Shown here: piece by piece, positions 5,144-38,880 of the stretch | How positions within the stretch are numbered: position 1 is the first letter of the stretch | Layout of the letters: the number at the start of each line of letters is the position of its first letter | Assembly: GCA_965369365.1 (NCBI GenBank) | Contig: CBDUQO010000001.1 | Span: forward strand, 1 to 44,496 | Length of the DNA stretch: 44,496 nt | From: an uncultured Methanosarcinales archaeon | Lineage (GTDB): Archaea; Halobacteriota; Methanosarcinia; Methanosarcinales; Methanogasteraceae | Direction of reading: 5' to 3' | The notes under the pieces: model-generated | Told to the model about the DNA's origin: nothing | Database searches by the model: none | What the model saw: the letters and a program-made list of their open reading frames with translations, nothing else | Program-made: the position numbers and the translations under genes

Positions 5144-5155
5144 GGGCAAGACATC

Positions 5156-6249: not shown

Positions 6250-6253
6250 AGCC

Positions 6254-11173: not shown

Positions 11174-11174
11174 A

Positions 11175-21847: not shown

Positions 21848-23511
21848 GATTGTCTGGGGTGGCGATCCCTGATCCAAAGCCCACCGAGCAGAAAGACGAA
21901 ATCATCCATCTCGTAAGTTTTAAGAGCGGGATGATCGGTGTAAATGCGCCCTTCGAAGAAAAAGATCGATGCAAAGCTCTGTCTACACGCAGATGGGAAA
22001 AGCCGTATTGGGTGTGCCCGGCATCAATCATCGAAGAGGTCGCAACGGCGTTCGCAGATGGTGTGCAGAGTGACGGATTCAAACGTGTTCTTGCCGAGCA
22101 GCACGACAACGCAGCTCCCCGCCCAATACCCACAAACCTCGATCTCGGCAATTTCGGGAACGGAAAAACCATGATGCCATATCAGTTAGAGGGGGTGGCA
22201 AAAATCCTTAGTATGGATATAAAAAGTCTGGTAGCGGATGAAATGGGGCTGGGTAAAACCGTAGAGGCTTTGGCGGTGCTCGCAGTCATGCCAAAGATGC
22301 GACCGGCAATCGTCGTGTGCCCCGCATCCCTGAAACTTAATTGGGAACAGGAGGCAAACGCGTGGCTCGAGACCGATGAAAACATCTTAGTAGTCAAGAA
22401 CGGCAAGGCAAAAACGATAGCCGAGGACGTCAGCATCGTGATAATCAATTATGAGGTACTGAAAAAGTGGCTCCCGGAATTGCAGAAAATGGGGCCGCAA
22501 ATACTGATACTCGATGAGAGCCACGCAGTCAAGAACCCCAAAGCAGCCCGCAGCAAAGCCGCAAAAGAGCTCGCCAGCACAACGCCCCACCGATTACTCC
22601 TAACCGGAACCCCGGTATTGCATCGCCCATCAGACATCCGAAACCAGCTTGAGATCATCGACCCCATTTCATACAATAAGGCGAACTGGTTCTCATGGCA
22701 CATGAAGTATGCTGATGCGAAACAACTCCATTTCGGAAGAAAATCGGTTTGGGACTTTTCTGGCGCATCAAATCTTGATGAACTTGCCAAGTCCCTCGAA
22801 CCAATCATGATCCGACGCACAAAAGCAGAGGTGTTGCCGGAACTACCCGCAAAGCGCCGGACAACCGTCCTCATCCCGATCGACAACCGGAAAGAGTATG
22901 ATAGGGCAAACAAAGAGTTTGCAGACTGGATCACAGACCTGAAAGGTGATGCCGCTTCATCTGCTTTGAACGCAGAGCAGATAGCAAAGCGAGAATACCT
23001 GAAACAGTTGGCGATTCAGGGCAAGATAAAAGAATCCATCGCGTGGATTGATAATTTCCTTGAGTCCGGCGAGAAACTGATCGTTTTCGCTACACACAAA
23101 GCCACGGTTCATGCGCTTGAGCGGCAATATGGAAACATTGCCACGAAAGTGGTTGGTGGCATGTCCGCAGATGCTAAGAACGCTTCTGTAGAGGCATTCC
23201 AGAACGATCCAAACGTCAGATTATTTATCGGAAATATTCAGGCGGCTGGCGTCGGCTACACCCTAACCGCCGCGTCTCATGTAGCGTTCTTGGAACTTCC
23301 CGATGGTCCGGAGATGATCAAGCAATGCGAAGACCGTGCGCACAGGATAGGGCAGACAAACGCCGTAAACATATATTTCTTGCTTGCAGAGCGAACGATC
23401 GATTCGCAAACATCGTCGATGGTGGACCATAAAAATGGAATTATAACCCATATCACTGGCGACGGCGCAGGACAGGGCTTTAATCTGTTTACATTCGTGA
23501 AGGGGGTGTGA
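21835..23511 (+). CDS. SNF2-family helicase/translocase
   Basis: PYQLEGV, DEMGLGKT, ILDESHAVKN, LLLTGTPVLHRP and the C-terminal helicase motifs QCEDRAHRIGQ. Confidence 0.9.
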   Translation: MQKIGLSGVAIPDPKPTEQKDEIIHLVSFKSGMIGVNAPFEEKDRCKALSTRRWEKPYWVCPASIIEEVATAFADGVQSDGFKRVLAEQHDNAAPRPIPTNLDLGNFGNGKTMMPYQLEGVAKILSMDIKSLVADEMGLGKTVEALAVLAVMPKMRPAIVVCPASLKLNWEQEANAWLETDENILVVKNGKAKTIAEDVSIVIINYEVLKKWLPELQKMGPQILILDESHAVKNPKAARSKAAKELASTTPHRLLLTGTPVLHRPSDIRNQLEIIDPISYNKANWFSWHMKYADAKQLHFGRKSVWDFSGASNLDELAKSLEPIMIRRTKAEVLPELPAKRRTTVLIPIDNRKEYDRANKEFADWITDLKGDAASSALNAEQIAKREYLKQLAIQGKIKESIAWIDNFLESGEKLIVFATHKATVHALERQYGNIATKVVGGMSADAKNASVEAFQNDPNVRLFIGNIQAAGVGYTLTAASHVAFLELPDGPEMIKQCEDRAHRIGQTNAVNIYFLLAERTIDSQTSSMVDHKNGIITHITGDGAGQGFNLFTFVKGV

Positions 23512-26601: not shown

Positions 26602-26636
26602 AAAAAAGAAAAAGGTTCGTCGAGACATGGGGGAAC

Positions 26637-26948
26637 TCATGCCTCTACTATCTCAAGACTGGCACCCTCTTGCACAAGAGCATCGAACTTCTGAAGCGTA
26701 TTGTCTCGGTCACGCAGAACGACGACCTTAGAGACTCCAATAGGACCTACGCCAAGCCGCCTAGCAGTCTTCATGTGGGCGAACTTAAGCTTGACCTCGA
26801 TATCGACGATATCAACAAGCTCATAGCCGTTGTTATCGTGTGTGATTGTGCTGACTCCTTTCAGCACGACGGCGATGGTCCGCTCACCAGCATGAGTATC
26901 CGTGATCTTAGAGACGATTAGACTTGATTCGATAGACTGACCAGCCAT
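26637..26948 (-). CDS. Hypothetical protein (103 aa), downstream partner of the RHH gene
   Basis: Protein-like translation on the minus strand (MAGQSIESS..); GGGGGTG 6 nt upstream; A-run terminator on the far side. Confidence 0.5.
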   Translation of the reverse strand: MAGQSIESSLIVSKITDTHAGERTIAVVLKGVSTITHDNNGYELVDIVDIEVKLKFAHMKTARRLGVGPIGVSKVVVLRDRDNTLQKFDALVQEGASLEIVEA

Positions 26949-26972
26949 CCTACGCACCCCCGCTTCTGGGAG

Positions 26973-27146
26973 TCATGAGGCAACCTCCAGGCGAGGCGGG
27001 ACCTGCCCGACAACGACGTTCCTGATGTATGCTGATGTGGTGATCCCGCTATCACGAGCGGCAGCCTCGATCATAATAAAGGTCTCAGGCTTAAATCTAA
27101 CAGTCTTCAGTCGAGTATATAAGGTTTCTTCTTTGTTGTTTTCCAT
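26973..27146 (-). CDS. Ribbon-helix-helix protein (antitoxin/MobC-like); start uncertain, could extend to 27266
   Basis: LKTVRFKPETFIMIEAAARDSGITTSAYIRNVVVG is a typical RHH beta-strand plus two helices. Confidence 0.6.
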   Translation of the reverse strand: MENNKEETLYTRLKTVRFKPETFIMIEAAARDSGITTSAYIRNVVVGQVPPRLEVAS

Positions 27147-27292
27147 TGTATCGCGTCCTGAAGCCACGGAACCCTTATATCCCACAATGCGCATCTGCAC
27201 AGGGGAGCGGGTTTCGCTATGCAGGTTGATCTCCTGCATGGCTCCATACTCTGAAATGTACCACATTGCATATAAGCTTTGTGTTACAACTT

Positions 27293-27484
27293 GATTGCAC
27301 GGCGGGGATGATCTCTGCCGGATACAACATCATTCCTGCAAATAAGCAAGTAATGGACGGCATCAAGAAAGTGAAGACCTACCAACTACATCTTCACAAC
27401 GAAAGCACGAACGTGATCAAGGAAATCCGGACATACAAATGGCGGCAGGACAAGAACAAGGACATTCCCAGAAAAAAGAAAGAA
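27293..27484 (+). pseudogene. Relic of the C-terminal nuclease region of a second, different-family terminase large subunit
   Basis: Translation ISAGYNIIPANKQVMDGIKKVKTYQLHLHNESTNVIKEIRTYKWRQDKNKDIP follows the G-x-N-V-x-P-A-x-K..GI..L..Y.I.I...S.NLIKEL..Y.W..DK pattern of PBSX/Terminase_3-type TerL. It has no N-terminal ATPase part and is cut off before the NH..DA.RY motif. Confidence 0.5.
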
Positions 27485-27793
27485 TCAGTCGCGAACCCAA
27501 CGATCCCCCTCCGGGTCGATCAGGTCGCGACCGTCTATGGTGAGTGGCACGATAACTCCAAGAAACTCCACCTTCAGTAGCACAACACCGTCCCGGATGC
27601 TGTAGCGGCCAAATGCGCCACCACCGCCATGTGCCTCATCACTGAGCATTTCATACTCACCATTTTGCAGGTAGAGTATGCCGTCATCTACCCTGCAGCG
27701 GTATGTCCCCTCTGCAAGGTCATCCTTATCGATGCACCCGCAGAGATGCACCGCGAGCAGAACCATCAAGAGCCCGATTGTTCTTTGTTTCAT
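27485..27793 (-). CDS. Lipoprotein (lipobox HLCGC)
   Basis: MKQRTIGLLMVLLAVHLCGC signal peptide with a lipobox cysteine; ATGA overlap with the upstream gene. Confidence 0.65.
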   Translation of the reverse strand: MKQRTIGLLMVLLAVHLCGCIDKDDLAEGTYRCRVDDGILYLQNGEYEMLSDEAHGGGGAFGRYSIRDGVVLLKVEFLGVIVPLTIDGRDLIDPEGDRWVRD

Positions 27794-27975
27794 GATATAT
27801 CAACCCTTATCGTCAGTATTTCAGTCTCATCGTCGAACTCTGCGCGGTAATCATGATCAGCATCTTTAGACAGCGGAAAGTATTTAGTCATTGCATCGCT
27901 GATTCGTTGCTTGAAATAGAACGTCCGCCCTCGGTGTAACTTAGAGCACGAGCATGTTTGAGATGTTACTGTCAT
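27790..27975 (-). CDS. Small hypothetical protein (first gene of the minus-strand cassette; start uncertain)
   Basis: ORF coupled to the lipoprotein gene; C-terminal YRAEFDDETEILTIRVD resembles the start of DUF2283-type small proteins. Confidence 0.35.
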   Translation of the reverse strand: MTVTSQTCSCSKLHRGRTFYFKQRISDAMTKYFPLSKDADHDYRAEFDDETEILTIRVDIS

Positions 27976-28018
27976 GGTTAATTGGTGGCCATAACTACTA
28001 TATAAATGTTATCTATCG

Positions 28019-28052
28019 ATATAGGATTACAAAAGTTTATATAGGATTACAA
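28019..28052. promoter_or_regulatory. Divergent promoter region: direct repeat ATATAGGATTACAA x2 (20-bp period) overlapping a TTTATATA box
   Basis: Copies at 28019-28032 and 28039-28052. tttatata at 28035-28042 is about 25 nt from the ATG at 28067. A second TATA-like actatataaat lies at about 27996. Confidence 0.6.
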
Positions 28053-28066
28053 CGAACATATAGCAC

Positions 28067-28432
28067 ATGAAGTTGCTATACACACTTCTAATGGTGACAA
28101 TGCTTTTGTGCAGCATTGGGATAGTAAGTGCCGCAAACGACGTAGACATGTCCAAAATGGTAGACATGGAGAAAGTGAAAACAAACGCCATGAGCTTCTG
28201 GAGCGACATCGCTGACGTGGGATATCTGGTGCTGGGCTCAGCTCTGACAGTATGCTTATTGATAATCTTTGGTGTTGCTGTAAGCGGTGCGGGAAACTCT
28301 GCGCTCGGGGGGAAGGGCAGGGATGCAAACGCGACGAATGAAGGGAGAAAAAGTATGGCCGACGCGGTCTACGCTATCGTTGGGTTGGTCGTTGTACTGC
28401 TTGTAATTGCGGTAGTTGCGAGGATGCTGTGA
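28067..28432 (+). CDS. VirB2/TrbC-like pilin candidate
   Basis: Signal peptide ending IVSA/AND, amphipathic helix, hydrophobic helix, basic loop GGKGRDANATNEGRK, second hydrophobic helix. This is conjugative-pilin topology. Confidence 0.45.
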   Translation: MKLLYTLLMVTMLLCSIGIVSAANDVDMSKMVDMEKVKTNAMSFWSDIADVGYLVLGSALTVCLLIIFGVAVSGAGNSALGGKGRDANATNEGRKSMADAVYAIVGLVVVLLVIAVVARML

Positions 28433-29376
28433 GTACAGCATCCACCCTGGTTTTTTTTTTGGTTTTATTTTCTATGAGTAACGCGTCTGCATGGGGCAGC
28501 CCGTTTGACATCAAAAACGAATCGTTTTTCGATGGTGATTGGGAGATTGCAAGTGAGCATGGCAACCCAGTCAAGAATGTAAAAAGCAATGCTCATATCC
28601 GTGCATGGATCGACATCATAGGATTCGATAACGAAAGCATCATCAACGGAACTCGTTATGTTAATGGATCTCCTAAGGATTTTGCGATCGTTCGGCGAGA
28701 TGCGTGGCATACCTCGGTTAGTGGTGTGGTCGTTTCGTTTACGACTACCTATGCCGGTGTTTACGATGGAAACAACACGACGACTGCATCGCAAACAACA
28801 AATTTCCATTGGAAATACAAAGTACATACCCTATATGGATCCCATTGGAGGCACGTCTACGAAGGGCCGTTGACTGTTTCATACACGGCAGAGTCGCCAG
28901 AAACATTCAACAACGCCATCGATGGGTATGAAATAACGATAGTATCTTACAACAACTCGGTTACACCATACACACTGATCTGCACTCCAGATCGATGGAA
29001 CATAATTAAAACAACCATTGAATATAAAAATAACCTAACCCACTGGCATAATCAGACTGGATGGGTGGCGGTAAACGACAGAAAAACAGAGCATGTAGAG
29101 TTCTTAAATGCATCGCAATGCATCGCAGACAGCGCAAACATGCTCACCAGAAGGGCCGGCTACACAGTCATAAACGAAGCGCCATTAAACTGGTCGCTGT
29201 TAGATATCTGTGTGTATACCCCGTATGCCACCCACCAAAACCCTGCCTTAAACATAACAGTGATCAACAGCAAACCACTGGATTATGTGCAGTGGGAGGT
29301 TATGATTATATTTTTAGCAGTTCTCGGGGCGTTCATCATTATGTCATATTCGCTGTTGCGGAGGGTGCGATTATGA
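28429..29376 (+). CDS. Surface glycoprotein candidate (signal peptide, sequon-rich ectodomain, C-terminal TM anchor)
   Basis: GTG start overlapping the previous stop (GTGA). STLVFFLVLFSMSNASA signal peptide, many N-x-S/T sites, C-terminal WEVMIIFLAVLGAFIIMSYSLL followed by RRVR. Confidence 0.6.
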   Translation: MSTASTLVFFLVLFSMSNASAWGSPFDIKNESFFDGDWEIASEHGNPVKNVKSNAHIRAWIDIIGFDNESIINGTRYVNGSPKDFAIVRRDAWHTSVSGVVVSFTTTYAGVYDGNNTTTASQTTNFHWKYKVHTLYGSHWRHVYEGPLTVSYTAESPETFNNAIDGYEITIVSYNNSVTPYTLICTPDRWNIIKTTIEYKNNLTHWHNQTGWVAVNDRKTEHVEFLNASQCIADSANMLTRRAGYTVINEAPLNWSLLDICVYTPYATHQNPALNITVINSKPLDYVQWEVMIIFLAVLGAFIIMSYSLLRRVRL

Positions 29377-30356
29377 AGTATATAATTTTAATGTTAATAC
29401 TGCTGTTGGCGCTTGTGCCCGTTTGTAGTGCGGGTCTCGCGGACCTAAATCCACTTACAGCAGGCGCAAACATGATCGCAAACGGGATCGACAAGTCTAT
29501 CACGAACGTGGCCGATAGCCTGATGGACGGGTTTGGATCGACAAATGTATCAGCAAACACGATAGGTTCCTCAGATCCGCCATCAGTCACAAACATGATC
29601 AAGGGATTTGCGACGTGGACGGTATCGCCGTTTCAGTACGCTATAGTAATCAAAATAATGGGTCTGTCACTATGCTGTGCAATATTATTCTTGTTCACCT
29701 ACGCACTCCTTGGGGCCGCGTATGTTGCTATGAGCCGGATGTCCAGCAAGAAGATGGACCTGTTCCATTACCTCATGAACTCAAATTCGGGGCACAGGGC
29801 GTTCCAAAATTATGGACAAAACATAGTTGTGGGCTGCATTGCGATGACATTTATGGCGTGGGGCGTGTTCATGACGCTGCTTCTATCAAAGGTTCTGAAG
29901 ATGATGATCATGGATGGGATTGCTGATGCGATATCCCCCTCACTCGCAACGGTGTCAGTATTATATCTTGCGATGGCTCTGATGTGGGTACTCGTCGCGG
30001 TATTCTTTGGGATCTCCAACATTATTATCTGCTTGACAGCGGCTCTTTCGTTCCTCTTAGGGGCGTTGTATGCATCAGACCGCACGAGACACATCACTGT
30101 AGCATGGATGGATTACTTCTTCGGGATGGTGTTGATGCAAATATTTGTGATACTCGTTGTGGCTGTTGCGGTTGGCGTAATACTCGATATCAAGGCGACA
30201 ACCGCAGGGGGACTTCTGTTCGCAAGTAATCCTATGGCAGAGTTCTCTATGTATGCTGGACTCATTGCGTTCGTGCTGATCGGATGTATATACTTCGTAA
30301 TCGGGAAAGCCCGGGTCATTAAGGTCGGGAAAAAAGTCATAAAGTTGGTGGTATAA
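29373..30356 (+). CDS. Polytopic membrane protein, VirB6/TrbL-like candidate
   Basis: ATG at 29373 (ATGA overlap). Signal peptide MKYIILMLILLLALVPVCSA, then at least six hydrophobic helices. The listed 431-aa ORF start at 29061 lies inside the previous gene. Confidence 0.5.
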   Translation: MKYIILMLILLLALVPVCSAGLADLNPLTAGANMIANGIDKSITNVADSLMDGFGSTNVSANTIGSSDPPSVTNMIKGFATWTVSPFQYAIVIKIMGLSLCCAILFLFTYALLGAAYVAMSRMSSKKMDLFHYLMNSNSGHRAFQNYGQNIVVGCIAMTFMAWGVFMTLLLSKVLKMMIMDGIADAISPSLATVSVLYLAMALMWVLVAVFFGISNIIICLTAALSFLLGALYASDRTRHITVAWMDYFFGMVLMQIFVILVVAVAVGVILDIKATTAGGLLFASNPMAEFSMYAGLIAFVLIGCIYFVIGKARVIKVGKKVIKLVV

Positions 30357-31177
30357 TGAAACAAATAAACTCTAAACAAACAGGAAAGGGACTAATGTCC
30401 CCATTACAGACCGCCGCATCGCTTGTCCTAGTGTCTGTATGGGCGCTGGCAGTAGCCGGATCGTACCTTGTAGGACTGAACATCTACATCGTATTGGTGA
30501 TCATGGTTGTGATGGCAATCGGGGTTATGGGGATATTTATCACAGCAATCTTAGACAAGACGGTGTTCTATCGGCACGTAACGTACATACTATATTTACT
30601 GCGGTTTTGTCGGGGAATGACAAAGATACACTCGTATGCCCTGCCACTCGACAAGCTGAAGCAGCATGTCCCGATAGAGAGAGTCCATGATGGTGGGCTT
30701 ATCGAGTACTCTGAAAAGCGATATGGGATCCTCTGTAAGTATGATCCACCTCAGATATCGAAGACAGAGTACCCAGCATATCATGCACAGATGGCGAAGA
30801 TAGCCAACGCAATCCCTGCAGGAGTTGAGGTATCATTTCATTTCTACAACAAAGTAGATTACGCAAACCCACTCGCAGAAACAATCTTGTCATCGATGAA
30901 TACGGAAGGAAAGACACAAGCGCAAAAGGAACACCTGCATGGAATGTATGAGTACGCCACAGAATCTGAATTAGCACAGGCAACGCCCGATTACTTAATA
31001 TCAATCAAGCTGGGGAAATTTAGCACGGTGAAACTGGCAATGCTATCATATCAGTTCGCAGTCCCGGGACTGCTAAAGTCGATGAGAGAGCGGGGAATCT
31101 ATGCAAACCAACTCATCGGCGAGAATGAAATCGCTATAGAACTTCGCAACTTTGCAATAATGGAGAAGTATCAATGA
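30356..31177 (+). CDS. Membrane hairpin plus soluble domain, VirB3 / VirB4-N-domain-like candidate
   Basis: Two TM helices, then LPLDKLKQHVPIERVHDGGLIEYSEKRYGILCKYDPPQISKTEY, which resembles the N-terminal region of Gram-positive-type VirB4 proteins. Coupled on both sides. Confidence 0.4.
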   Translation: MKQINSKQTGKGLMSPLQTAASLVLVSVWALAVAGSYLVGLNIYIVLVIMVVMAIGVMGIFITAILDKTVFYRHVTYILYLLRFCRGMTKIHSYALPLDKLKQHVPIERVHDGGLIEYSEKRYGILCKYDPPQISKTEYPAYHAQMAKIANAIPAGVEVSFHFYNKVDYANPLAETILSSMNTEGKTQAQKEHLHGMYEYATESELAQATPDYLISIKLGKFSTVKLAMLSYQFAVPGLLKSMRERGIYANQLIGENEIAIELRNFAIMEKYQ

Positions 31178-33690
31178 GACTATTATCGCGGATTAGAGGG
31201 AAGAAAGCACAGCATAAGAAGTATGCCAAAGACGCCGAAACTGACAGACAGAACGAATGGTGGAGCATCACACGGAAGATTCTACCACCAACTATCACAG
31301 AAACGCACGAACACCTGTCATTAACTGATGACACCTTCGTCAGTTGCATCGTGGTGGGTGTGCCGGAGTTTGACACCCCCGGATACTCTCGGACGATTGA
31401 CTCTGCATACCTTGGAGATCTACTTAGCACGGTGAAAAACAGGTGCTTCATCGGATATTCCTTCGCAATATCACCATTTGGGCAGGCACACTCTAACAGA
31501 GCTTTGGAAGATGCAGAGTTCAGAAATGTGCAGGATCAGATGGATGATATGGATACCAACTCGTTAGGACGGATCAAAAACAAGACAGGATTCATCGCGA
31601 CGGATATCAAAGACGACCAGAAAGCCGTCCATGACCAGACTGCAAAACAGTTCGACACCGCTTGCATCATCACTATCCGGGCGGATTCGATAGCCGAGTT
31701 GAATGCATCCCACAGCCAAGTAACCAGCATACTTGACAGGAACTTGGTTGGGTGGACTCCAGCCGAAGGTAAGATGCTTGAGACGTACAAGTGTGCCCAG
31801 CCATGGGGGCGGATAACCCCTCTGGCACGGGTAGACTGCACATCTGCACAAGTTGCATCACTACTTCCGATGCAACGACTTGATAGCCGTACCGCGATAT
31901 CCGGTATCTGGTTCGGCAATCAGAAGACCGAGAACCCCTCAGATCGCGGTAAGCCCGTCATGGTAGATCTGTCGGCATTATCGGTTGAACATGGGCTGGT
32001 CTTCGGACCGTCGGGCTCAGGCAAGACTGCGTTTCTTATGGTTGCATCGATGAGAGCACACGATCAAAATAAATACCGCACCGTATATCTGACTGTGAAG
32101 GCTGACGCTGGGACGCAGTTTAGGAACGTCCCAGCGCATTATAAGGAGCTCGGAAACGTCATAGATCTTGGGATAGGTGAAGGGAAATCTGTGATCAATC
32201 CTCTGCAGATTGTGTACGATGCAACGACGCTGAAGGGCACAGATGCAGAGTATCTGCGCATCTATCATAAGCATAAGATGATCGTTGCCGCATTTTTCGA
32301 CACGTTCTTGAAGACTGGACTCACCGACAATCAAGGACATTACCTCGACCGTACCCTCAATGAGATATACGAAAAATATGACATGATCTCACTATCTTCT
32401 GAGAGAATCGTATGCCATCCGGAGAAGTGGGGTGACGGCGAGAACTTCCCAACGATCCATGAACTGCGAAAACTGTGGAAAGAAAACATGGCCGGCAGTC
32501 TTGGACGCCTGAAAGAGTCGGCAGAATCGCTGTACAATCGAACGGGGAACCTGAGTAAGATCGGGGCCTACTCATATATCAACAGTCGATCCACCGCTGA
32601 TTTTTCAGCAGACTACATCGTAGTTGATCTGTCCGGACTCGACAAAGGCATCCAAGACGCTATGAGCACGCTTGTAATCGACCTGATCGGTGCAAGATTC
32701 AACACCGATGCGAAGCGAAAAACAATGCTCATCATCGATGAGGGAGTAGCTTTTTCGTACAACGAGGCACGCCAGAGTTTCATCTCGAATGCATATACTA
32801 TGGGGAGAAGTGGGCAGATCACGGTGGTAATGTCGTTCACAGACCCCGGAAACATCAGCACGAGCTTCGCTACAATGCTGCAAACGAACTCAACATGGTC
32901 TTATATATTTGGGAAAGGGTTGGATGTAGCAAGCGTCGAATACCTGAAAGAGTTCTTCCGGCTGGATGAAGGCGACACGCAGGAACTGGTCACATCGGAG
33001 ATTGGTGGGGGGCTGTTGGTGCTTGGCACTCAGAAGATTCCGATCTATCTGAAGATCACTGATCAAGAGATGGATATACTGAAGGGTAGAAATAATGCGC
33101 CGGAAAAAGCTTCGTCCAGTGGTGCTTTGATGCTGTTGGAATCTGTGTCAGAACTGGTGCAAGAGCAGGGATTCTGCCTTGATGAGTGGGTTGAGGATCC
33201 AAACCCGAAGGTAATGAACGACCTTGGTTATGTGCCGCATCTTGTGCAGCGAGTCGATGCGAACGGCAAGGCCAAGGCATGGGTTCAGGCGGACATAATA
33301 AGGGACGGGATGATCTACAATCAGACATTAGAGCACTATAGCTCTGTAATAATGATTGCAGGACGACTGTTACAATCCGGATTTGAGGATGTGTCAGTGA
33401 ACCACTTCGATAAGGAGGATGTGCGGGCGACGTTTGCCGGGAAATCCTACTCATTTGAGTACGAACGGCAAGGGTCGCACACAGAGAAGCAGCTTGAGAC
33501 CAAGTGCAGAAAGCTTGAAAGCACTAACAGCCGATGCTTTTTTGTGTGTCAAAAGAGCTATGAAAAGTTCGTAGCGAAAGCGGTTGGAGCCCACAATACG
33601 TGCACCCGTGGAGCCTCCTTCAAAGGGGCGATCGATGCGGTTTTGAACGAATACAATTCAGACAAAAAGGAGGACAAAACAAATGAGTAA
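31174..33690 (+). CDS. VirB4/TraC-class conjugation-type ATPase with a C-terminal extension of about 180 aa
   Basis: Walker A FGPSGSGKT, Walker B KTMLIIDEGVAF, DLSGLDKGIQDAMSTLVIDLIG and GGGLLVLGTQKIPIYLKITDQEMDIL blocks in VirB4 order; size 838 aa. Confidence 0.75.
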   Translation: MRLLSRIRGKKAQHKKYAKDAETDRQNEWWSITRKILPPTITETHEHLSLTDDTFVSCIVVGVPEFDTPGYSRTIDSAYLGDLLSTVKNRCFIGYSFAISPFGQAHSNRALEDAEFRNVQDQMDDMDTNSLGRIKNKTGFIATDIKDDQKAVHDQTAKQFDTACIITIRADSIAELNASHSQVTSILDRNLVGWTPAEGKMLETYKCAQPWGRITPLARVDCTSAQVASLLPMQRLDSRTAISGIWFGNQKTENPSDRGKPVMVDLSALSVEHGLVFGPSGSGKTAFLMVASMRAHDQNKYRTVYLTVKADAGTQFRNVPAHYKELGNVIDLGIGEGKSVINPLQIVYDATTLKGTDAEYLRIYHKHKMIVAAFFDTFLKTGLTDNQGHYLDRTLNEIYEKYDMISLSSERIVCHPEKWGDGENFPTIHELRKLWKENMAGSLGRLKESAESLYNRTGNLSKIGAYSYINSRSTADFSADYIVVDLSGLDKGIQDAMSTLVIDLIGARFNTDAKRKTMLIIDEGVAFSYNEARQSFISNAYTMGRSGQITVVMSFTDPGNISTSFATMLQTNSTWSYIFGKGLDVASVEYLKEFFRLDEGDTQELVTSEIGGGLLVLGTQKIPIYLKITDQEMDILKGRNNAPEKASSSGALMLLESVSELVQEQGFCLDEWVEDPNPKVMNDLGYVPHLVQRVDANGKAKAWVQADIIRDGMIYNQTLEHYSSVIMIAGRLLQSGFEDVSVNHFDKEDVRATFAGKSYSFEYERQGSHTEKQLETKCRKLESTNSRCFFVCQKSYEKFVAKAVGAHNTCTRGASFKGAIDAVLNEYNSDKKEDKTNE

Positions 33691-33856
33691 CAGAACAAAG
33701 AAGACAAAAGTACAAAAGCATTCATCGAAGATGCTTTTGGCAGCTTTCAGCCCAGTCGGAGCACCGAGAGAGCCAGAACGCAGACGGTACTTACCTTTAT
33801 ACTTTGGGCGAGCGAAGGCGATGAGCGAGCGAGGGGGTGAAAACCATGTCGGGTGA
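33683..33856 (+). CDS. Unlisted basic 57-aa ORF
   Basis: ATG overlapping the end of the ATPase gene; MSNRTKKTKVQKHSSK.. is highly basic. Confidence 0.3.
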   Translation: MSNRTKKTKVQKHSSKMLLAAFSPVGAPREPERRRYLPLYFGRAKAMSERGGENHVG

Positions 33857-33965
33857 ATCAAAAGCATGTGAATCCTGTGGGATACGCAAAGACGTGCATA
33901 GGTGCACATGGCGAGTCAAGACGATGTGGCTATGTCCTTCATGCAAGAGAGCATGGGGCGGATGA
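33846..33965 (+). CDS. Unlisted 39-aa zinc-ribbon ORF
   Basis: MSGESKACESCGIRKDVHRCTWRVKTMWLCPSCKRAWGG with CxxC..CxxC. Confidence 0.35.
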   Translation: MSGESKACESCGIRKDVHRCTWRVKTMWLCPSCKRAWGG

Positions 33966-34171
33966 ACGGAATGGAGATGGCTCTGAGATTTGTTGCAGGT
34001 GGTGATGCTGCTCCCTGCGGTTACACTGATCGGGTATTACTTTATTGGGCCGACTGTTTATACGGGGCAGTTACGGTCCACCGCGAAGTTCAGCGTGTAT
34101 GCGCTATCGACGACGTTCGTATTTCGGATTGCGTTTTACTACGCACAGACCATCATGAACGATTGCATTGA
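33962..34171 (+). CDS. Hypothetical 69-aa ORF (frame ambiguous; an alternative membrane-like frame runs 34005-34184)
   Basis: ATGA overlap with the previous small ORF favours this frame; the alternative frame encodes a two-TM-like peptide. Confidence 0.25.
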   Translation: MNGMEMALRFVAGGDAAPCGYTDRVLLYWADCLYGAVTVHREVQRVCAIDDVRISDCVLLRTDHHERLH

Positions 34172-34196
34172 TAGGTATTACTAGAGGTATATAATT

Positions 34197-34433
34197 ATGA
34201 CCGAAAAGAATATGAAACCAACAAACCTTACGAACTCAGATATGGTCAGATTCAGGGAATTTAGGAAGACAGCAACGATATGGGCTGGACATATTCCAAT
34301 ACCCTTCATAGTCGAGACTCTCGAAGGAACATTTGAGGGCAAGGCTGGCGACTGGCTGGCAGAAGGGATCGAGGGAGAACGTTACATCATCGATGATGCA
34401 ATCTTCAGGAAGACATACGAAGAGGTAGTCTGA
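34197..34433 (+). CDS. PGDYG-domain-like small protein
   Basis: VETLEGTFEGKAGDWLAEGIEGERYIIDDAIFRKTYEEV follows the T-x-EG..(P)GDY/W..G..GE.Y....F...Y pattern. Confidence 0.5.
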   Translation: MTEKNMKPTNLTNSDMVRFREFRKTATIWAGHIPIPFIVETLEGTFEGKAGDWLAEGIEGERYIIDDAIFRKTYEEVV

Positions 34434-34931
34434 ATGCCTGGTGATGCGGCGCATGTAAAGTCGGCGAAGTTCGTCGCGGTGATCGGCGCAGTAATACTGT
34501 TCGCGCTGGGCTGGGACCCTATCCATATCGTGGCTACTGCTGCGCTGTTCATGTTCAGTGTGATGTTCTTGAGCCCCGACCTCGATCTACCGGGCACCGA
34601 GCCCATGCAGCGATGGGGCGCACTCCGCTGGGGCTGGCTGATGTTCGAGAAGCGCATCCCTCACCGCAGCCCGTGGTCGCATGGATGGATTCGCGGATGG
34701 CTCACAATCCAAGCAAACTTTTTAGCGATCCTGGTATTGATCCTTGTATTTTTGAGGCTGTGCTGGATACCGCTGATCGAGCCGCTGATCGCGCAAGGGA
34801 ACGAGATCATTGATGAGTTGCTGATGTTCCACTTTTCGACAGAGGTCATAACAGTATTAATCTGGTGGGTGTGCGTGAGTGCGGCGGCACACTGGCATCA
34901 CAAGATCCTTGACACTTTCACGAGGAACTGA
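34434..34931 (+). CDS. Membrane metal-binding protein, DUF2227/COG2389-like
   Basis: FLSPDLDLPGTEPMQRWGALRWGW..PHRSPWSHGW motif block plus flanking TM helices. Confidence 0.5.
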   Translation: MPGDAAHVKSAKFVAVIGAVILFALGWDPIHIVATAALFMFSVMFLSPDLDLPGTEPMQRWGALRWGWLMFEKRIPHRSPWSHGWIRGWLTIQANFLAILVLILVFLRLCWIPLIEPLIAQGNEIIDELLMFHFSTEVITVLIWWVCVSAAAHWHHKILDTFTRN

Positions 34932-34932
34932 T

Positions 34933-35136
34933 ATGAACGTAATCAACCTCGTGAACATCGTACTGAAATACCTGACAACAAGGAGGCAAACAATGAAAAC
35001 AAAGAACGTATCTCGGAGACGAACCGCGGTAGCCACGGCAACGGCGGTGTGTGGGGCATGCGGCGGTGAGGTCTGTGATGCGAACTCTAGAACCCATCTC
35101 CGCGTATGTTTCAGATGTGGGCGCAAGGTGCAGTAA
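34933..35136 (+). CDS. Zinc-ribbon mini-protein (67 aa)
   Basis: CGACGG..CFRCG; ATG 2 nt after the previous stop; last gene before a strong terminator. Confidence 0.45.
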   Translation: MNVINLVNIVLKYLTTRRQTMKTKNVSRRRTAVATATAVCGACGGEVCDANSRTHLRVCFRCGRKVQ

Positions 35137-35145
35137 CGCCAGCGA

Positions 35146-35183
35146 AGCCACGTAATAATTACGTGGCTTATATTCTTTTTTTG
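35146..35183 (+). terminator. Strong hairpin plus T7 terminator ending the 28067-35136 operon
   Basis: aagccacgtaat-a-attacgtggctt (12-bp perfect arms), then atattcttttttt. Confidence 0.75.
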
Positions 35184-35300
35184 GATGATATTGTTTGTGT
35201 GCTAAACAACAGATATACTTATATACATTAAGCACACAGTAGTATATTGCAACACCGAACTGTTGCAGGACGTGACTGAACCCTGACCGAAAACACACAA

Positions 35301-35477
35301 ATGCAGAAAACCCGCGCATACGCAACACACAAACACCAGCAGGGATGTTTGCACTCCTGGGGGGGTGGGATTGAGATATCCCCCACTGTCTCTACATTCG
35401 AGGACATTCTCGACGAATTGTGGAAGCGACAAGAAGTCGAGATCCCCGCACCCCAATTATGCGGGGGGTGCATATGA
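35301..35477 (+). CDS. Unlisted 58-aa ORF (Cys/His-containing)
   Basis: First ORF after the TATA-like acttatatac at about 35217. It begins a chain of ATGA-coupled ORFs: 35301-35477, 35474-35557, 35554-35811. Confidence 0.3.
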   Translation: MQKTRAYATHKHQQGCLHSWGGGIEISPTVSTFEDILDELWKRQEVEIPAPQLCGGCI

Positions 35478-35553
35478 ACTTTAGCGACGACTCGAAGTTG
35501 CAGGAAAATTACTTCGGGCTGACAGCCCGGGGATGGATTATGGGGACAGTGCT

Positions 35554-35811
35554 ATGAAAAGAATATTGGTCCCAGAACTTCGAAATTTGGGAGTGCGTTT
35601 TCTAACGAACGCCCCATCAGATAGTTGGATCATGTTTGGAGTCGCCGTGCGGGAATTCCATGTGATCCATGACGGGCAGGAGAAGATCCTGCAGGCAGTT
35701 GGAGAAGAACTGTATAGAAAACTACAGAAATTCGCACCAATTGCGGGCAGAAATCTATTGGTGCAGAAAGCCGGGGGCTATCACGTTAGACCTCTGCAAA
35801 CTCAGCCCTAA
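35554..35811 (+). CDS. Hypothetical protein (85 aa; alternative start 35533)
   Basis: The ATG at 35554 overlaps the stop of the preceding mini-ORF. Confidence 0.45.
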   Translation: MKRILVPELRNLGVRFLTNAPSDSWIMFGVAVREFHVIHDGQEKILQAVGEELYRKLQKFAPIAGRNLLVQKAGGYHVRPLQTQP

Positions 35812-35824
35812 GGAGTTGAGAATA

Positions 35825-36187
35825 ATGAACATAATAATAAACTTTAGCCACCCGCTCAGCAAGGTGGCAACGAATCAGCTCGGGAACCCGAAAATAGAGA
35901 ACGTCCGGGTTCAGATCAATCTAAGCGCCCCGGTTGCGCCACAGATCGAAACAATCATCGAAGAGATCAAGACCCCGCTCGATGGCACGGTCGCCGGACT
36001 TGCGATAGTCCTACCAGGAATGTCCGAAGCCGCTGCATACGTTCTTGCAGCACTGCACGGGAGGATGGGGACGTTCCCGACGATCGTTCCACTGAGGCGG
36101 AACGATGAGAGGGGGATCTTCGGGATTGCGGAGGAGGGAGCAACATCTCTCGAACGCATTCGGCAGGACGGGAGGATGAAAAGATGA
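35825..36187 (+). CDS. Small alpha/beta (minimal Rossmann-like) protein
   Basis: AGGAG 9 nt upstream. MNIIINFSHPLS beta-strand/loop start, IVLPGMSEAAAYVLAALHGRMGTFPTIVPLRR second strand-helix-strand. The listed start at 35669 overlaps the previous gene. Confidence 0.5.
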   Translation: MNIIINFSHPLSKVATNQLGNPKIENVRVQINLSAPVAPQIETIIEEIKTPLDGTVAGLAIVLPGMSEAAAYVLAALHGRMGTFPTIVPLRRNDERGIFGIAEEGATSLERIRQDGRMKR

Positions 36188-36468
36188 GAACGAGCATAAC
36201 AGTCGCCTGCGCCAAGGTGACCGCGGAGCTCAAGAGGAGCGGTAAAGATGTATTTTCGGATAGAGATATCCGAGCTGCCCTGACGAAAGCCGACCGCCAA
36301 TCAGCGACATCGATGCTTAATTATATGGGCAGGACGGGATACCTGGTTGAGGGGGGGTTCCTTGCCCGAACGGTTGACGGGTATGAACTATCCGACACAT
36401 CGATGAGAACAGACAGGTTTGTCGTTGACGTGGCGGTGAAAAACCCAGCTCTTCGCATGGAGGTATAA
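36184..36468 (+). CDS. Winged-helix-like small protein
   Basis: SDRDIRAALTKADRQSATSMLNYMGRTGYLVEGG resembles a wHTH; ATGA overlap. Confidence 0.45.
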   Translation: MRTSITVACAKVTAELKRSGKDVFSDRDIRAALTKADRQSATSMLNYMGRTGYLVEGGFLARTVDGYELSDTSMRTDRFVVDVAVKNPALRMEV

Positions 36469-36470
36469 TT

Positions 36471-36602
36471 ATGATAAATAAGATATATTGCCCACGATGT
36501 GGGGCAAGAATAGATGAAGATGAATACGATCCATACGACGATGCGGGATCGTGGACCTGCGTCAACTGCGGAGCACCGTTGCCCTCAAGGATGGGGGGAT
36601 AA
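36471..36602 (+). CDS. Unlisted 43-aa zinc-ribbon ORF
   Basis: MINKIYCPRCGARIDEDEYDPYDDAGSWTCVNCGAPLPSRMGG; GGAGGT upstream; followed by a GGGGGG-ATAA-CCCCC hairpin. Confidence 0.45.
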   Translation: MINKIYCPRCGARIDEDEYDPYDDAGSWTCVNCGAPLPSRMGG

Positions 36603-36680
36603 CCCCCTCCTTTTCCTAATCCGCACGATGCACACGTGCGCTGACGAGCCGTAAGGCGGCGAAATTAGGAGGCTACAACC

Positions 36681-36872
36681 ATGGATAAATCACAACTAAG
36701 GGCACGACGTAGAGGCATGAACACAGCAGAGATGCTGCAAGACATGAGCGACAAGGAGCTGGCAAGAAACGCAAGGCGAGGCGGGCAGATGGCAATCGAA
36801 GAGCAGGACGAGTTCCACAAGAACAACAAACCGGCACCACGTCCACTTCCGGACCCGGAGCTGGACCAATGA
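36681..36872 (+). CDS. Small protein carrying the MSDKELARNA(R/K)(R/K)GG module
   Basis: AGGAGG 6 nt upstream; shares a 32-nt identical DNA stretch with 37920-37951. Confidence 0.5.
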   Translation: MDKSQLRARRRGMNTAEMLQDMSDKELARNARRGGQMAIEEQDEFHKNNKPAPRPLPDPELDQ

Positions 36873-37120
36873 TGGCAAGTATAAAAGGATACCGAGATAT
36901 CCTAAATTTCTCGGACGACTTGGAGATGTGTGAATCCTATTTCGGACTAATCGCACACGGGAAGACCTTTTTCGTGTCACGCTTCATAAACGTGAATGAG
37001 GGAAAGGTGGTCAAATATAAGTTGACCAAGTCTGAAGCAGTAGAGATCCAGAAGGACTGGAAAAAAGTCGGAAGGTCTGAATGGTTCTTCGAACGATGGA
37101 TACATGGGAAGGTGACATAG
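36869..37120 (+). CDS. Hypothetical protein (83 aa)
   Basis: ATGA-coupled ORF. Confidence 0.45.
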   Translation: MMASIKGYRDILNFSDDLEMCESYFGLIAHGKTFFVSRFINVNEGKVVKYKLTKSEAVEIQKDWKKVGRSEWFFERWIHGKVT

Positions 37121-37184
37121 AAAAGGGCACTCACAGCCCTGCAAAGCTATCAGAATCGATCTACCAAGCCGGTACAGCACGCAC

Positions 37185-37239
37185 AGACGTAGCCGGTAGT
37201 CCGACACTTCAGGGGGGTGAACCCCCCTGGACATCAGAC
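37185..37239 (+). repeat. 55-nt intergenic repeat, copy 1 (contains a G6-TGAA-C6 hairpin)
   Basis: agacgtagccggtagtccgacacttcaggggggtgaacccccc is identical in both copies, followed by a 3-nt difference and then the shared acatcagac. Confidence 0.9.
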
Positions 37240-37273
37240 GTACAAACCCTACAATTTTTTGGAGGAAACAATA

Positions 37274-37426
37274 ATGAACACATGTCCAGATCAGAAGAAC
37301 GAGAAAGCTGTATACGAATCCGCGGTATACAGAGGAAAGCACGACACGCAAGAATATGTGATTCGGGCGTTAACATCGGCACTACAGCAGTTTAAGCCGC
37401 TGACCACCATGGAGATCGAAGAATGA
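37274..37426 (+). CDS. Hypothetical 50-aa protein
   Basis: ATG with GGAGG 9 nt upstream; the listed GTG start at 37217 lies inside the repeat hairpin. Confidence 0.4.
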   Translation: MNTCPDQKNEKAVYESAVYRGKHDTQEYVIRALTSALQQFKPLTTMEIEE

Positions 37427-38010
37427 ACGTGAGTGGCGACATCACGAGTTTTGCACCGAAAGAGGGCTACATCTGCGATGCCAAAAAGCACAAGAAGGCA
37501 TTCACAGAAAAATACGACTTCAGATTGGTCTCACCAGGGTACTTCCTTTGCGTCAATGGGGACAACGCATACGCTATCTCGGAGTACGCCGGGAAAGTGG
37601 GATGCGGCTGCGAGGACATGACCTATCGATGTCCGGGCGATGAGGTCTGCAAGCACTTGATCGCATTCCTGAACCTGGATGAGTACCCGCTCAAGCCAAT
37701 CGACGACGAGCACCGGAATGCACTGAAGGCAGCAGGCTGGACCGGGACAAAGTTACACCCACCGAAGAACGTACAAGCGACAAAGCAGGATGTACCAGAA
37801 CAGAAGCGGAAGCAGCCGAACATCCACGATCCGGAGAGAAAGCCAACGCAAAAAGCCAACAAGCGGGCAGAGACAAAGCAGAACTACGCGGGGAAAACAG
37901 CAGAGCAAATGGTCAGAGCCATGAGCGACAAGGAGCTGGCAAGAAACGCAAAGAAAGGCGGAGTAGCAGCGATAGCAGAAGTGAAACGAAGAGCAGCAGA
38001 GGAGGAATAG
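37423..38010 (+). CDS. SWIM zinc-finger protein with a C-terminal MSDKELARNAKKGG module
   Basis: CGCEDMTYRCPGDEVCKH fits the SWIM CxCxnCxH signature; basic linker; C-terminal module shared with 36681-36872. Confidence 0.65.
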   Translation: MNVSGDITSFAPKEGYICDAKKHKKAFTEKYDFRLVSPGYFLCVNGDNAYAISEYAGKVGCGCEDMTYRCPGDEVCKHLIAFLNLDEYPLKPIDDEHRNALKAAGWTGTKLHPPKNVQATKQDVPEQKRKQPNIHDPERKPTQKANKRAETKQNYAGKTAEQMVRAMSDKELARNAKKGGVAAIAEVKRRAAEEE

Positions 38011-38014
38011 GAAA

Positions 38015-38188
38015 ATGGAATCAAAAGAGAATCGATATGCAGGAATGGACAACGTAGAGGTTGCGAGGAATGCGAAGGGGGAGTATAGCTGGAAAGTCAA
38101 GCTATACTTCGGAGACCATCAGGAGATCGAAGGCATAATCGCAGATCTGAAGAGAACGGATCTGCGATTGAAGGAGGAGTTCCTATGA
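38015..38188 (+). CDS. Unlisted 57-aa ORF
   Basis: MESKENRYAGMDNVEVARNAKGEYSWKVKLYFGDHQEIEGIIADLKRTDLRLKEEFL; its stop overlaps the next ATG. Confidence 0.4.
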   Translation: MESKENRYAGMDNVEVARNAKGEYSWKVKLYFGDHQEIEGIIADLKRTDLRLKEEFL

Positions 38189-38394
38189 GTTTCATGGACG
38201 ACATAGACAAGGGACTACAGAAGATGGAAGGCGACGAGAAGGTGAAGAGTGCAAGAGAGAACGCCTTCATCGATATGACGTGCGTGAACTGCGGGAATGA
38301 AATCAGGGTGCACAAGATGCGGGCAAAGCATGGATCCATCCAGTGCCCATGCTGCAAAGTGCAGATCGTGATGATGCGAGGTACACCGCAATGA
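38185..38394 (+). CDS. Zinc-ribbon mini-protein (69 aa)
   Basis: CVNCG..CPCC. Confidence 0.5.
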   Translation: MSFMDDIDKGLQKMEGDEKVKSARENAFIDMTCVNCGNEIRVHKMRAKHGSIQCPCCKVQIVMMRGTPQ

Positions 38395-38407
38395 GGAACT
38401 GTTGCAG

Positions 38408-38644
38408 ATGGCGAAGGCGAGCATGAACTAGGGAAAAGATTATTCGGCACACGTCGAAAAAGCACGCAGTGAGGTTCACAACGAGATATTCGATCAGGTC
38501 GGATGTTGCAGAGATTTACACAGGCTGGAAGACCGGGAGTTCAACACGGCACTAAACAAAGCAATAGAAGACTTAATGTATGTGGATAGTGTGGCGGTGT
38601 GTGGTGCAAACATTACAACACCAATGCGGAGAATGATGGGCTAA
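38408..38644 (+). CDS. Candidate 78-codon gene interrupted by an in-frame TAG at 38429-38431
   Basis: ATG 10 nt after GAGGA. MAKASMN-TAG-GKDYSAHVEKARSEVHNEIFDQVGCCRDLHRLEDREFNTALNKAIEDLMYVDSVAVCGANITTPMRRMMG. The 70 codons after the TAG contain no ATG/GTG/TTG until near the end. Confidence 0.3.
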
Positions 38645-38679
38645 GTATCAAGAACATTGCCCTCCGGGACGGATCACCA

Positions 38680-38734
38680 AGACGTAGCCGGTAGTCCGAC
38701 ACTTCAGGGGGGTGAACCCCCCAGAACATCAGAC
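38680..38734 (+). repeat. 55-nt intergenic repeat, copy 2
   Basis: See 37185-37239; same orientation, 1495 bp downstream. Confidence 0.9.
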
Positions 38735-38809
38735 ATGGTAATACATAGTAGTAGTGAGGAAGGGCGCGTAGCGGCGACGAGACGAACGACGGCGAAACTG
38801 ACCCGGTAA

Positions 38810-38836
38810 GGGGTGTAACGCCCCGATCTTTTTTTT
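38810..38836 (+). terminator. Hairpin plus T8 ending the small-gene block
   Basis: ggggtg-taa-cgcccc followed by gatctttttttt. Confidence 0.6.
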
Positions 38837-38850
38837 CTGAGGGGATACAC

Positions 38851-38859
38851 CTATATAAT
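38851..38859 (+). promoter_or_regulatory. TATA box (ctatataat) of the late operon
   Basis: About 26 nt upstream of the portal ATG, which implies a leaderless or very short-leader transcript. Confidence 0.5.
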
Positions 38860-38880
38860 CATAATCTGAGTATCATACCT

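Follow-up and report, generated by a model that had tools for sequence, protein, structure and literature searches.

We have analysed a 44,496-nt stretch of DNA (contig CBDUQO010000001.1, hereafter the window), in which five genes, p1 to p5, very likely encode a type IV secretion system (T4SS)-type module. We favour the interpretation, to which we give about an even chance, that this module is a reduced T4SS-type envelope machine, carried by a virus as an accessory cassette and used for contact-dependent DNA translocation between cells. An earlier note, made from the bare sequence, had described a T4SS-like operon of membrane proteins and an ATPase inside a complete tailed-virus genome, and this description is borne out by the VirB4 assignment of p5, by the split VirB4 N-terminal domain and by family-level TrbL evidence. 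The five coupled plus-strand genes (Table 1) and their four overlapping start/stop junctions (GTGA at 28429, ATGA at 29373, TAATG at 30354-30358 and ATGA at 31174) were all found as described there.

The p5 ATPase body carries a Walker A motif (GPSGSGKT, residues 278-285) and a Walker B motif (LIIDEG, residues 519-524). Its NCBIfam matches comprise the VirB4 model CD1110 (E 9.8e-23, residues 142-629, 80.3 bits versus a cut-off of 325), Mbov_0397 (E 2.3e-16) and VirB4_CagE (E 4.6e-8, 31.8 bits versus a cut-off of 643), and the CedB model aligned to 83 residues around the P-loop only (E 3.7e-7, 29.1 bits versus a cut-off of 700). The solved VirB4 C-terminal domain was matched as well (PDB 4AG5, E 8.6e-8). 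With hhalign, comparisons of the module's families to single Bacillus pilin, TrbL and VirB4 sequences were insignificant; a four-member Gram-positive VirB4 profile aligned to p5 over 558 columns with a probability of 100% (E 1.2e-42). These matches place p5 in the VirB4/TraC class, as had been proposed; since all NCBIfam scores fall short of the curated thresholds, p5 represents a divergent VirB4 lineage outside any curated equivalog. The FtsK/HerA clade, which the earlier note had raised as the alternative placement, yielded only marginal Pfam matches (E 0.005 for FtsK and 0.013 for HerA), and a packaging or FtsK/HerA role for p5 was discarded because VirB4 profiles score far better and a T4-type terminase is present.

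In the hhalign alignment, p5 residues 34-636 correspond to positions 213-784 of the 799-column VirB4 profile, and this late beginning, at VirB4 position ~213, implies that the N-terminal ~210 residues of a typical VirB4 are missing from p5. The AlphaFold2 (AF2) model of p4 (predicted local distance difference test score, pLDDT, 75.9) comprises helices at residues 16-38, 43-65 and 68-86 followed by an alpha/beta domain, corresponding to an N-terminal hydrophobic hairpin and a soluble part. In a Foldseek search of the PDB, the top 14 matches were all R388 TrwK/VirB4 (probability 0.99-1.00, 160-207 columns), followed by a sharp fall to unrelated folds. Residues ~114-280 of p4 are colinear with VirB4 positions 19-183 (hhalign E 0.06, insignificant alone), and p4 and p5 occur naturally as a single chain, namely in locus L056 and in five representatives of 1,066-1,129 aa (P0204, P0231, P0237, P0247 and P0251), of which P0204, P0231 and P0237 retain the N-terminal hairpin. 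Some p4 relatives weakly match PrgI (3 of 37) or TcpE (2 of 37; best E 0.0077), and in hhalign the p4 family aligned to four PrgI-like proteins with an E-value of 0.0023 and a probability of 13%; against PDB sequences, the p4 profile gave spurious membrane-protein matches only. Based on the fold, the colinear alignment, the natural fusions and the weak PrgI/TcpE matches, we regard p4 and p5 as a split VirB3-VirB4, in which p4, judging from its model, supplies in trans the VirB4 N-domain that p5 lacks. The earlier suggestion that the soluble part of p4 resembles VirB3 or the VirB4 N-domain is thus supported by both the R388 VirB4 fold matches and the natural fusions. A frameshift artefact was rejected as the origin of the split, which recurs, usually with overlapping stop and start codons, in 48 loci. 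The natural occurrence of split and fused VirB3-VirB4 forms offers a clean evolutionary series for this motor.

As a side observation in the same family, the 1259-aa p5 homolog P0174 has its Walker A loop interrupted by an insertion of ~366 aa (GATGSGK / ... HN / T), past which the family profile resumes, as is characteristic of inteins that contain a homing-endonuclease domain; a 1020-aa protein (L027:1194-4256) possibly carries the same insertion.

For p3, hydropathy indicates about 6-7 hydrophobic segments, and its assignment as a VirB6/TrbL-like polytopic protein finds support at the family level: Pfam TrbL (PF04610) was matched by 12 of 48 family members (best E 1.1e-7), precomputed TrbL matches exist for homologs 44-58% identical to p3, and the family profile aligned to PrgH/TrbL over 216 columns (hhalign E 2.3e-5, probability 76%). 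A search of PDB sequences with this profile returned spurious membrane-protein matches only. The layout of p1 (signal peptide, short ectodomain, helix, polar/basic loop, helix) is conserved in 28 homologs, a few of which weakly match Pfam T4SS_pilin (3 of 28, best E 0.0066), DUF2976 (4 of 28) or TrbL (3 of 28), and p1 weakly resembles the first membrane segment of p3 (E 1.4e-4; control 0.11). Neither a single Bacillus pilin nor a four-sequence Gram-positive pilin reference was significantly matched by the p1 family in hhalign. The view of p1 as a conjugative pilin therefore stands as far as its topology, its gene context and these weak matches are concerned, but none of the searches gave a significant pilin match by sequence or structure. 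p2 contains 13 N-x-S/T sequons, or 4.1 per 100 aa, compared to 0-0.8 in cytoplasmic and virion proteins, and a single C-terminal hydrophobic segment, and is predicted to be a glycosylated, anchored surface protein. Its body corresponds to the C-terminal ~290 aa of longer versions (610-715 aa) in relatives, two of which (L090 and L091) bear precomputed Beta_helix and Disaggr_assoc domains in their N-terminal extension. When scanned alone against Pfam, NCBIfam and PHROG, p1 and p2 gave no match. The topologies that the earlier note had assigned to p1-p4, including the sequon-rich p2 with its C-terminal anchor, hold in our alignments and hydropathy analysis.

Beyond the VirB4 body, p5 continues into a C-terminal domain, which the earlier note had not recognized and for which AF2 predicts an alpha-beta-beta-beta-alpha-beta core with high confidence (pLDDT 90.1). 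Foldseek relates this domain to the Holliday junction resolvase Hjc (1HH1; probability 1.0, root-mean-square deviation 2.8 A, 73 columns), with further matches to DdmD, Bax1, RecU, Can2/Cdn1, restriction enzymes and a splicing endonuclease (3AJV). Even relatives that are only 24-30% identical retain seven invariant residues, namely H721, D749, E762, Y763, E764, H769 and K777. Among them, E762-Y-E764 forms the motif in which Glu replaces the canonical Lys of (D/E)xK, and K777 is located on the next helix. The invariant Y763, H769 and K777 could also resemble the Tyr-His-Lys triad of splicing endonucleases. In an exhaustive profile search of 1.84 billion representatives, the domain family comprised only 187 clusters, and in all long proteins of this family the domain lies C-terminal to a p5-type ATPase; as far as such searches can tell, this PD-(D/E)xK-fold domain appears to occur almost only in the p5 ATPase family.

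The module is surrounded by a complete tailed-virus backbone, as had been stated. The ends of the window share a 55-bp terminal repeat, through which it closes to a circle of 44,441 bp, and Pfam identifies an HK97-type major capsid protein (Phage_capsid_4, E 1.8e-9; the gene wraps the contig ends), a T4-type large terminase (TerL; Terminase_6C, E 2.5e-16; Terminase_6N, E 1.9e-9), a portal (Phage_portal, E 5.6e-7), a MuF protein (Phage_Mu_F) and a tape-measure protein (PhageMin_Tail, E 1.5e-15), next to an MCM-like helicase and an SNF2 helicase as replication genes. The carrier is a circular HK97-lineage head-tail virus (Caudoviricetes) with capsid, portal, TerL and tail genes on one replicon. 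Labels of homologs (Methanosarcina sp., Euryarchaeota and Methanobacteriota metagenome-assembled genomes) and the Disaggr_assoc domains encoded at the p2 position of relatives hint at a host among methanogen-type Euryarchaeota.

In three sister viruses (L094-L096, identified via TerL; TerL ~48% and portal 37-39% identical to those of the window), the portal gene directly follows TerL, while the two genes are 12.3 kb apart in the window, which shows the cassette to be accessory. The impression that the module is more AT-rich than the structural genes holds for its overall GC content (47.5% compared to 51.2% outside the 26.6-38.9 kb block), but its GC content at third codon positions (GC3) overlaps that of other genes, and its tetranucleotide deviation does not exceed the one seen at 17-21 kb; the difference in composition is thus mild, and strong compositional foreignness was rejected. 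Tetranucleotide distance peaks at 27-31 kb. Att-like repeats, tRNA genes or Rfam families marking insertion borders were not found.

The p5 ATPase family comprises about 30 close members, four IMG/VR viral contigs and 80 metagenome loci. p4 and p5 occur together in 48 loci, of which 40 also contain p3; all five genes are present in 15, and 12 of these additionally encode a small lipobox protein, which in the window lies divergently upstream of p1. Relatives display three gene orders, in each of which the blocks p3-p4-p5 and p1-p2-lipoprotein are intact, the latter forming a second sub-module that accompanies the first. Dozens of independent contigs carry these genes side by side, at 24-70% identity, so that the block cannot be a fortuitous series of open reading frames (ORFs). 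IMG/VR viral contigs, which fall within the search proposed in the earlier note, are among the carriers. Single-protein locus searches of IMG/VR with the ATPase or the portal found nothing. Homologs of MuF and of a head-tail adaptor lie within 10 kb of the module in one relative (L007), and a tail-fibre-like homolog is found in another (L002). When 104 proteins encoded in the flanks of related loci were scanned, no virion families appeared among the most frequent matches, and the flanks mainly carry replication genes, two integrases, transposases and methylases. Few virion genes are common to these loci and the window, and the cassette thus appears to circulate among diverse elements, some of them viruses. 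It is widespread in anaerobic-digester and sediment metagenomes and could affect gene flow in methane-cycling communities.

These data also bear on the question whether the 26.6-38.9 kb stretch is truly owned by the virus. An assembly chimera, or a nested plasmid or integrative element, would account for the interrupted TerL-portal adjacency, for the GC content of the module, lower by 3.7 points, with its tetranucleotide peak, and for the company of replication genes, integrases and transposases that most relatives keep; moreover, a provirus nested in an archaeal integrative and conjugative element (ICE) has been documented (PMC6563490). However, the contig closes on itself with the 55-bp overlap, GC3 overlaps that of the remaining genome, a tetranucleotide deviation of equal size is present at 17-21 kb, the borders carry no att-like repeats, tRNA or integrase, and independent IMG/VR viral contigs contain the module, with virion-gene homologs in L007 and L002. 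We consider such an origin very improbable.

A predicted bidirectional promoter region separates p1 from the divergent operon. Its plus-strand TATA-type box, TTTATATA (28036-28043), precedes the p1 ATG at a distance of 23 nt; the earlier note had seen a box about 25 nt ahead of the operon. TTTAWATA matches are found only three times in the whole window, and a divergent TTTATATA copy at 28006-27999 (-) lies 23 nt before a minus-strand ORF of 61 aa, a homolog of which occupies the same position in L003. The TATA-to-ATG layout is kept in L002, L003 and L011, and the 23-nt spacing points to a leaderless or nearly leaderless archaeal transcript. Two identical copies of a 13-nt direct repeat, TATAGGATTACAA, begin 20 nt from one another, at 28020-28032 and 28040-28052; the second copy overlaps the p1 TATA box, beside which GGATTACAA is retained in L002. 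The repeats look like a candidate operator for a repressor, possibly the nearby ribbon-helix-helix (RHH) protein, and the entire gene set appears to be driven from this conserved bidirectional TATA promoter.

What the module does can be stated with less certainty, and DNA translocation is a tentative assignment, to which we give slightly less than an even chance. It is favoured by the NikA-type RHH gene adjoining the module and by the reduced pilin-like/VirB6-like/VirB4-like set, which is the set that imports DNA in Ced and Ted. Both systems, the former of Sulfolobales and the latter of Thermoproteales, combine a VirB4-like ATPase with a VirB6-like channel and a VirB2-like pilin, and have neither VirD4 nor a relaxase (Beltran et al. 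2023, PMC9905601). In cells that are infected by the virus or carry it, p3, as the VirB6-like component, would form a membrane conduit, onto which a p4/p5 hexamer would dock via the p4 hairpin; powered by this motor, p1 subunits may be extracted to build a surface fibre or stub, and DNA may be moved through the channel. p2, which in relatives has the features of a beta-helix/disaggregatase-type enzyme, and the lipoprotein would deal with the cell envelope, and the nuclease-like domain could cut or hold DNA at the cytoplasmic mouth of the channel, in place of the missing relaxase. Transfer might proceed either way, as export of viral DNA or as Ced-like import. In a more far-reaching version, which we consider unlikely as a whole, the virus would possess a second, virion-independent route, a conjugation-like channel or pilus passing its genome to neighbouring cells, for example in aggregates where virions cannot diffuse, and the nuclease-fold domain fused to VirB4 would carry out relaxase-type DNA processing. 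If true, this would be a real virus-conjugative element hybrid with a relaxase-free mode of DNA transfer.

Several observations weigh against our favoured reading of the module. The p5 scores fall far short of the curated cut-off of each VirB4 family model, p3 and p4 of the window alone have no significant match in Pfam, NCBIfam or PHROG, and the p1 profile retrieved spurious membrane matches and no significant pilin match from the PDB. Most related loci are short contigs with replication genes, integrases or transposases, and not virion genes, in their flanks, and a NikA-like RHH gene was not found beside the module in related loci. Nor did we find a VirD4/TraG partner, which is normal in archaeal ICEs and Sulfolobus plasmids: in agreement with the earlier note, domain scans of the 20 largest other ORFs of the window revealed no relaxase, VirD4 or integrase domain, and a phmmer query with Bacillus VirD4, a search of limited sensitivity, returned nothing from the window or from L002-L088 and L090-L092 at E <= 10. 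The absence of a relaxase does not exclude transfer, since archaeal conjugative elements are likewise without recognizable relaxases (PMC6563490). Finally, the nuclease activity of the p5 C-terminal domain is uncertain, given the exchange of the canonical Lys for Glu, and ATPase-nuclease fusions are typical of defence systems, with the p5 core matching the PADLOC model mad8.

The last point leads to the possibility that the module serves superinfection exclusion or defence, as a moron-type cassette encoding an envelope complex of ATPase and nuclease that destroys or blocks incoming DNA from competing viruses or conjugative elements. Apart from the fusion of an ATPase with a PD-(D/E)xK fold and the mad8 match (E 5.6e-15), this would fit the accessory nature of the cassette, its movement among backgrounds rich in methylases, integrases and transposases, and its lack of VirD4 and relaxase. 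However, the VirB4 match is much stronger (80 bits, hhalign E 1e-42) than that to mad8 (53.7 bits), none of the six partner proteins matched any defence model, and it would be left unexplained why the VirB6-like channel is so strictly inherited along with a pilin-like protein, a predicted glycosylated surface protein and a lipoprotein. We rate defence as rather unlikely. We regard as quite improbable a role in surface remodelling without DNA transfer, in which p1 would form a fibre and p2 would be displayed for adhesion, aggregate breakdown, as a receptor or for virion release, with a regulatory or inactive nuclease-like domain. The pilin-like topology of p1, the heavily sequon-bearing p2 and the replaced catalytic Lys would all be in line with this, as would the Beta_helix and disaggregatase-associated domains at the p2 position of relatives, which imply action on a cell-wall polymer, and the wall hydrolase that follows VirB4 in Gram-positive systems. 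Yet the conservation of seven polar residues at 24-30% identity, in a domain confined to the ATPase family, speaks for an active role on nucleic acids, and the known reduced pilin/VirB6/VirB4 sets, Ced and Ted, move DNA. A tailed virus with such a machine would give archaeal virology a candidate in which cell-to-cell spread, DNA uptake or exclusion could be tested.

Table 1. Features of the module and its surroundings (positions in the window).
Feature	Position	Strand	Length	Basis or remark
Accessory stretch between TerL and portal genes	26602-38880		12.3 kb	Contains the module
NikA-type ribbon-helix-helix protein	26973-27266	-	97 aa	Module neighbour, membership uncertain
Small lipobox protein	27485-27793	-	102 aa	N-terminus MKQRTIGLLMVLLAVHLCGC; conserved sixth module member
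First gene of divergent operon	27790-27975	-	61 aa	Overlaps lipoprotein start (ATGA)
Bidirectional archaeal promoter region	27999-28052			Two TTTATATA boxes and two 13-nt repeats TATAGGATTACAA
p1, pilin candidate	28067-28432	+	121 aa	Signal peptide (A-x-A site); polar/basic loop joining two hydrophobic helices
p2, predicted secreted sequon-rich surface protein with C-terminal membrane anchor	28429-29376	+	315 aa	Sequons, hydropathy
p3, polytopic TrbL/VirB6-like channel protein	29373-30356	+	327 aa	Family-level TrbL matches
p4, VirB3-like membrane hairpin and first part of VirB4 N-terminal domain	30356-31177	+	273 aa	Fold, fusions
p5	31174-33690	+	838 aa	
p5 residues 1-644, VirB4-class ATPase body	31174-33105	+		Profile matches, Walker motifs
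p5 residues 645-838, PD-(D/E)xK nuclease-fold domain	33106-33690	+		AF2, Foldseek, invariant residues
DUF2227 membrane protein	34434-34931	+		Pfam DUF2227; frequent partner downstream of module

The module is larger than the five genes initially recognized, as it includes the divergent lipoprotein operon and often a DUF2227 gene. Homologs of the lipobox protein occur in 27 related loci, where they invariably adjoin p1-p2, and DUF2227 genes are found near the ATPase in 12 related loci and in L092. The RHH protein matches the NikA-like Pfam family PF21983 just above its cut-off (E 2.4e-6, 28 bits versus 27), and its sole real match in the PDB is NikA (2BA3, E 1.4e-4).

Elsewhere in the window, the SNF2 helicase (21835-23511) scores strongly against the PADLOC models ZorD, DpdE and DrmD (E down to 3.6e-46), which probably reflects generic SNF2 similarity; it may be a counter-defence or a replication helicase. 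The capsid gene is immediately followed by four consecutive genes (788-5143) whose products have signal peptides. One product, of 674 aa, is a beta-helix/NosD protein, and another, of 466 aa, contains 24 sequons; these proteins are probably glycosylated and of a host-surface-binding or depolymerase type. A 120-aa ORF (11166-11528) directly follows the tape-measure gene and has homologs, 47-49% identical, beside the module in L003, L005 and L011, with a precomputed match to Pfam NRDD (anaerobic ribonucleotide reductase) in L003. The cumulative GC skew climbs near-monotonically along the whole window, whose longer ORFs are mostly on the plus strand; the few exceptions include the RHH gene and the lipoprotein operon, both on the minus strand ahead of the module. 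Just upstream of the portal gene lie two pairs of direct repeats, one of 71 nt (37169-37239 and 38664-38734, 87% identity) with a G6/C6 hairpin, CAGGGGGGTGAACCCCCCTG, within the repeat unit, and one of 45 nt (36740-36784 and 37917-37961, 91% identity); they could be duplicated gene ends, terminators, or pac or regulatory sites.

Horizontal gene transfer is commonly divided between two distinct vehicles, viruses and conjugative elements, and a tailed virus that stably keeps a conjugation-type envelope machine blurs this line. Conjugative and virion-forming elements are handled as distinct classes in PMC12282955 and PMC6563490. Phage-plasmids such as P1 and N15 are, as the replicon described here, tailed viruses with plasmid-type functions; a review assigns them and conjugative plasmids to separate mobility types, without naming any phage-plasmid that has mating-pair-formation (MPF) genes (PMC12282955). 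Homologs of p5 are absent from 50,697 deposited phage genomes, its plasmid relatives are only Firmicutes VirB4 proteins of 20-24% identity, and the literature searched holds no description of the cassette. The combination of a virus genome with a T4SS-type cassette and a VirB4-nuclease fusion is thus absent from deposited phage genomes and from the literature searched. In the BFVD, two bacterial virus proteins, gp155 of Bacillus phage G (G3MBM1) and a 'type IV transporter component' of the metagenomic Siphoviridae sp. ctHip2 (A0A8S5RVR4), share the fold of the VirB4 N-domain with a probability of 0.99. Phage records with VirB4-like proteins are therefore not entirely without precedent, and such proteins may be under-noticed in bacterial phage genomes too. 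The HerA-NurA repair complex, HerA-nuclease defence pairs and PADLOC mad8 combine, as does p5, a P-loop ATPase of the same superfamily with a nuclease-fold module; unlike the module, however, HerA/FtsK-nuclease pairs are soluble and have no VirB3, VirB6 or pilin-like partners, and p5 is nearer to VirB4 than to HerA.

The closest sequence relatives of p5 belong to the Gram-positive MPF-FATA-type core (PrgH/TrbL, PrgI/TcpE and CD1110 VirB4) of pCF10-like Enterococcus and Bacillus-group plasmids. The order p3-p4-p5 is that of PrgH-PrgI-VirB4 on these plasmids, which likewise have a small two-helix 'pilin' gene nearby and an envelope-directed protein. Even the split VirB4 is apparently paralleled on the Peribacillus asahii plasmid pOM18 (L173), where a soluble 227-aa protein (4303-4986) precedes a short 658-aa 'DUF87' ATPase (4998-6974). 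In contrast to the Gram-positive systems, the module has an archaeal host and archaeal promoters, a p5 of only 20-24% identity with an extra C-terminal nuclease-fold domain, and a virion-forming carrier, and no VirD4, relaxase, VirB8-like protein or peptidoglycan hydrolase was found.

Among archaeal systems, the pNOB8-type plasmids of Sulfolobus and thaumarchaeal ICEs share homologs of VirB4, VirB6 and VirB3 with the module and have no recognizable relaxase; like the carriers of the module, archaeal conjugative elements are mobile elements that exchange genes with viruses (PMC6563490). They pair VirB4 with VirD4/TraG, often have type IV pilus genes, and make no virions, whereas the virus described here encodes capsid, portal, terminase and tail proteins, with no VirD4 found. 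Ced and Ted share with the module the archaeal background, the reduced parts list of pilin, VirB6 and VirB4, and the absence of VirD4 and relaxase; a signal peptide is cleaved from the TedC pilin, and the same is predicted for p1, and the weak N-terminal similarity of p1 and p3 parallels the relationship of CedA1 to CedA (PMC9905601). Unlike the module, they are chromosomal and domesticated; a nuclease fusion has not been reported for them, and partners such as p2 or the lipoprotein are absent. The label 'Ced/Ted-like', given in the earlier note, is therefore apt for the reduced gene set but not for family membership, as the nearest sequence relatives are Gram-positive (MPF-FATA-type) and not CedB. 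How DNA is processed without a relaxase is a question common to Sulfolobus plasmids, archaeal ICEs and the Ced/Ted importers, and the VirB4-nuclease fusion offers a compact clue to such processing in the relaxase-less type IV systems of archaea.

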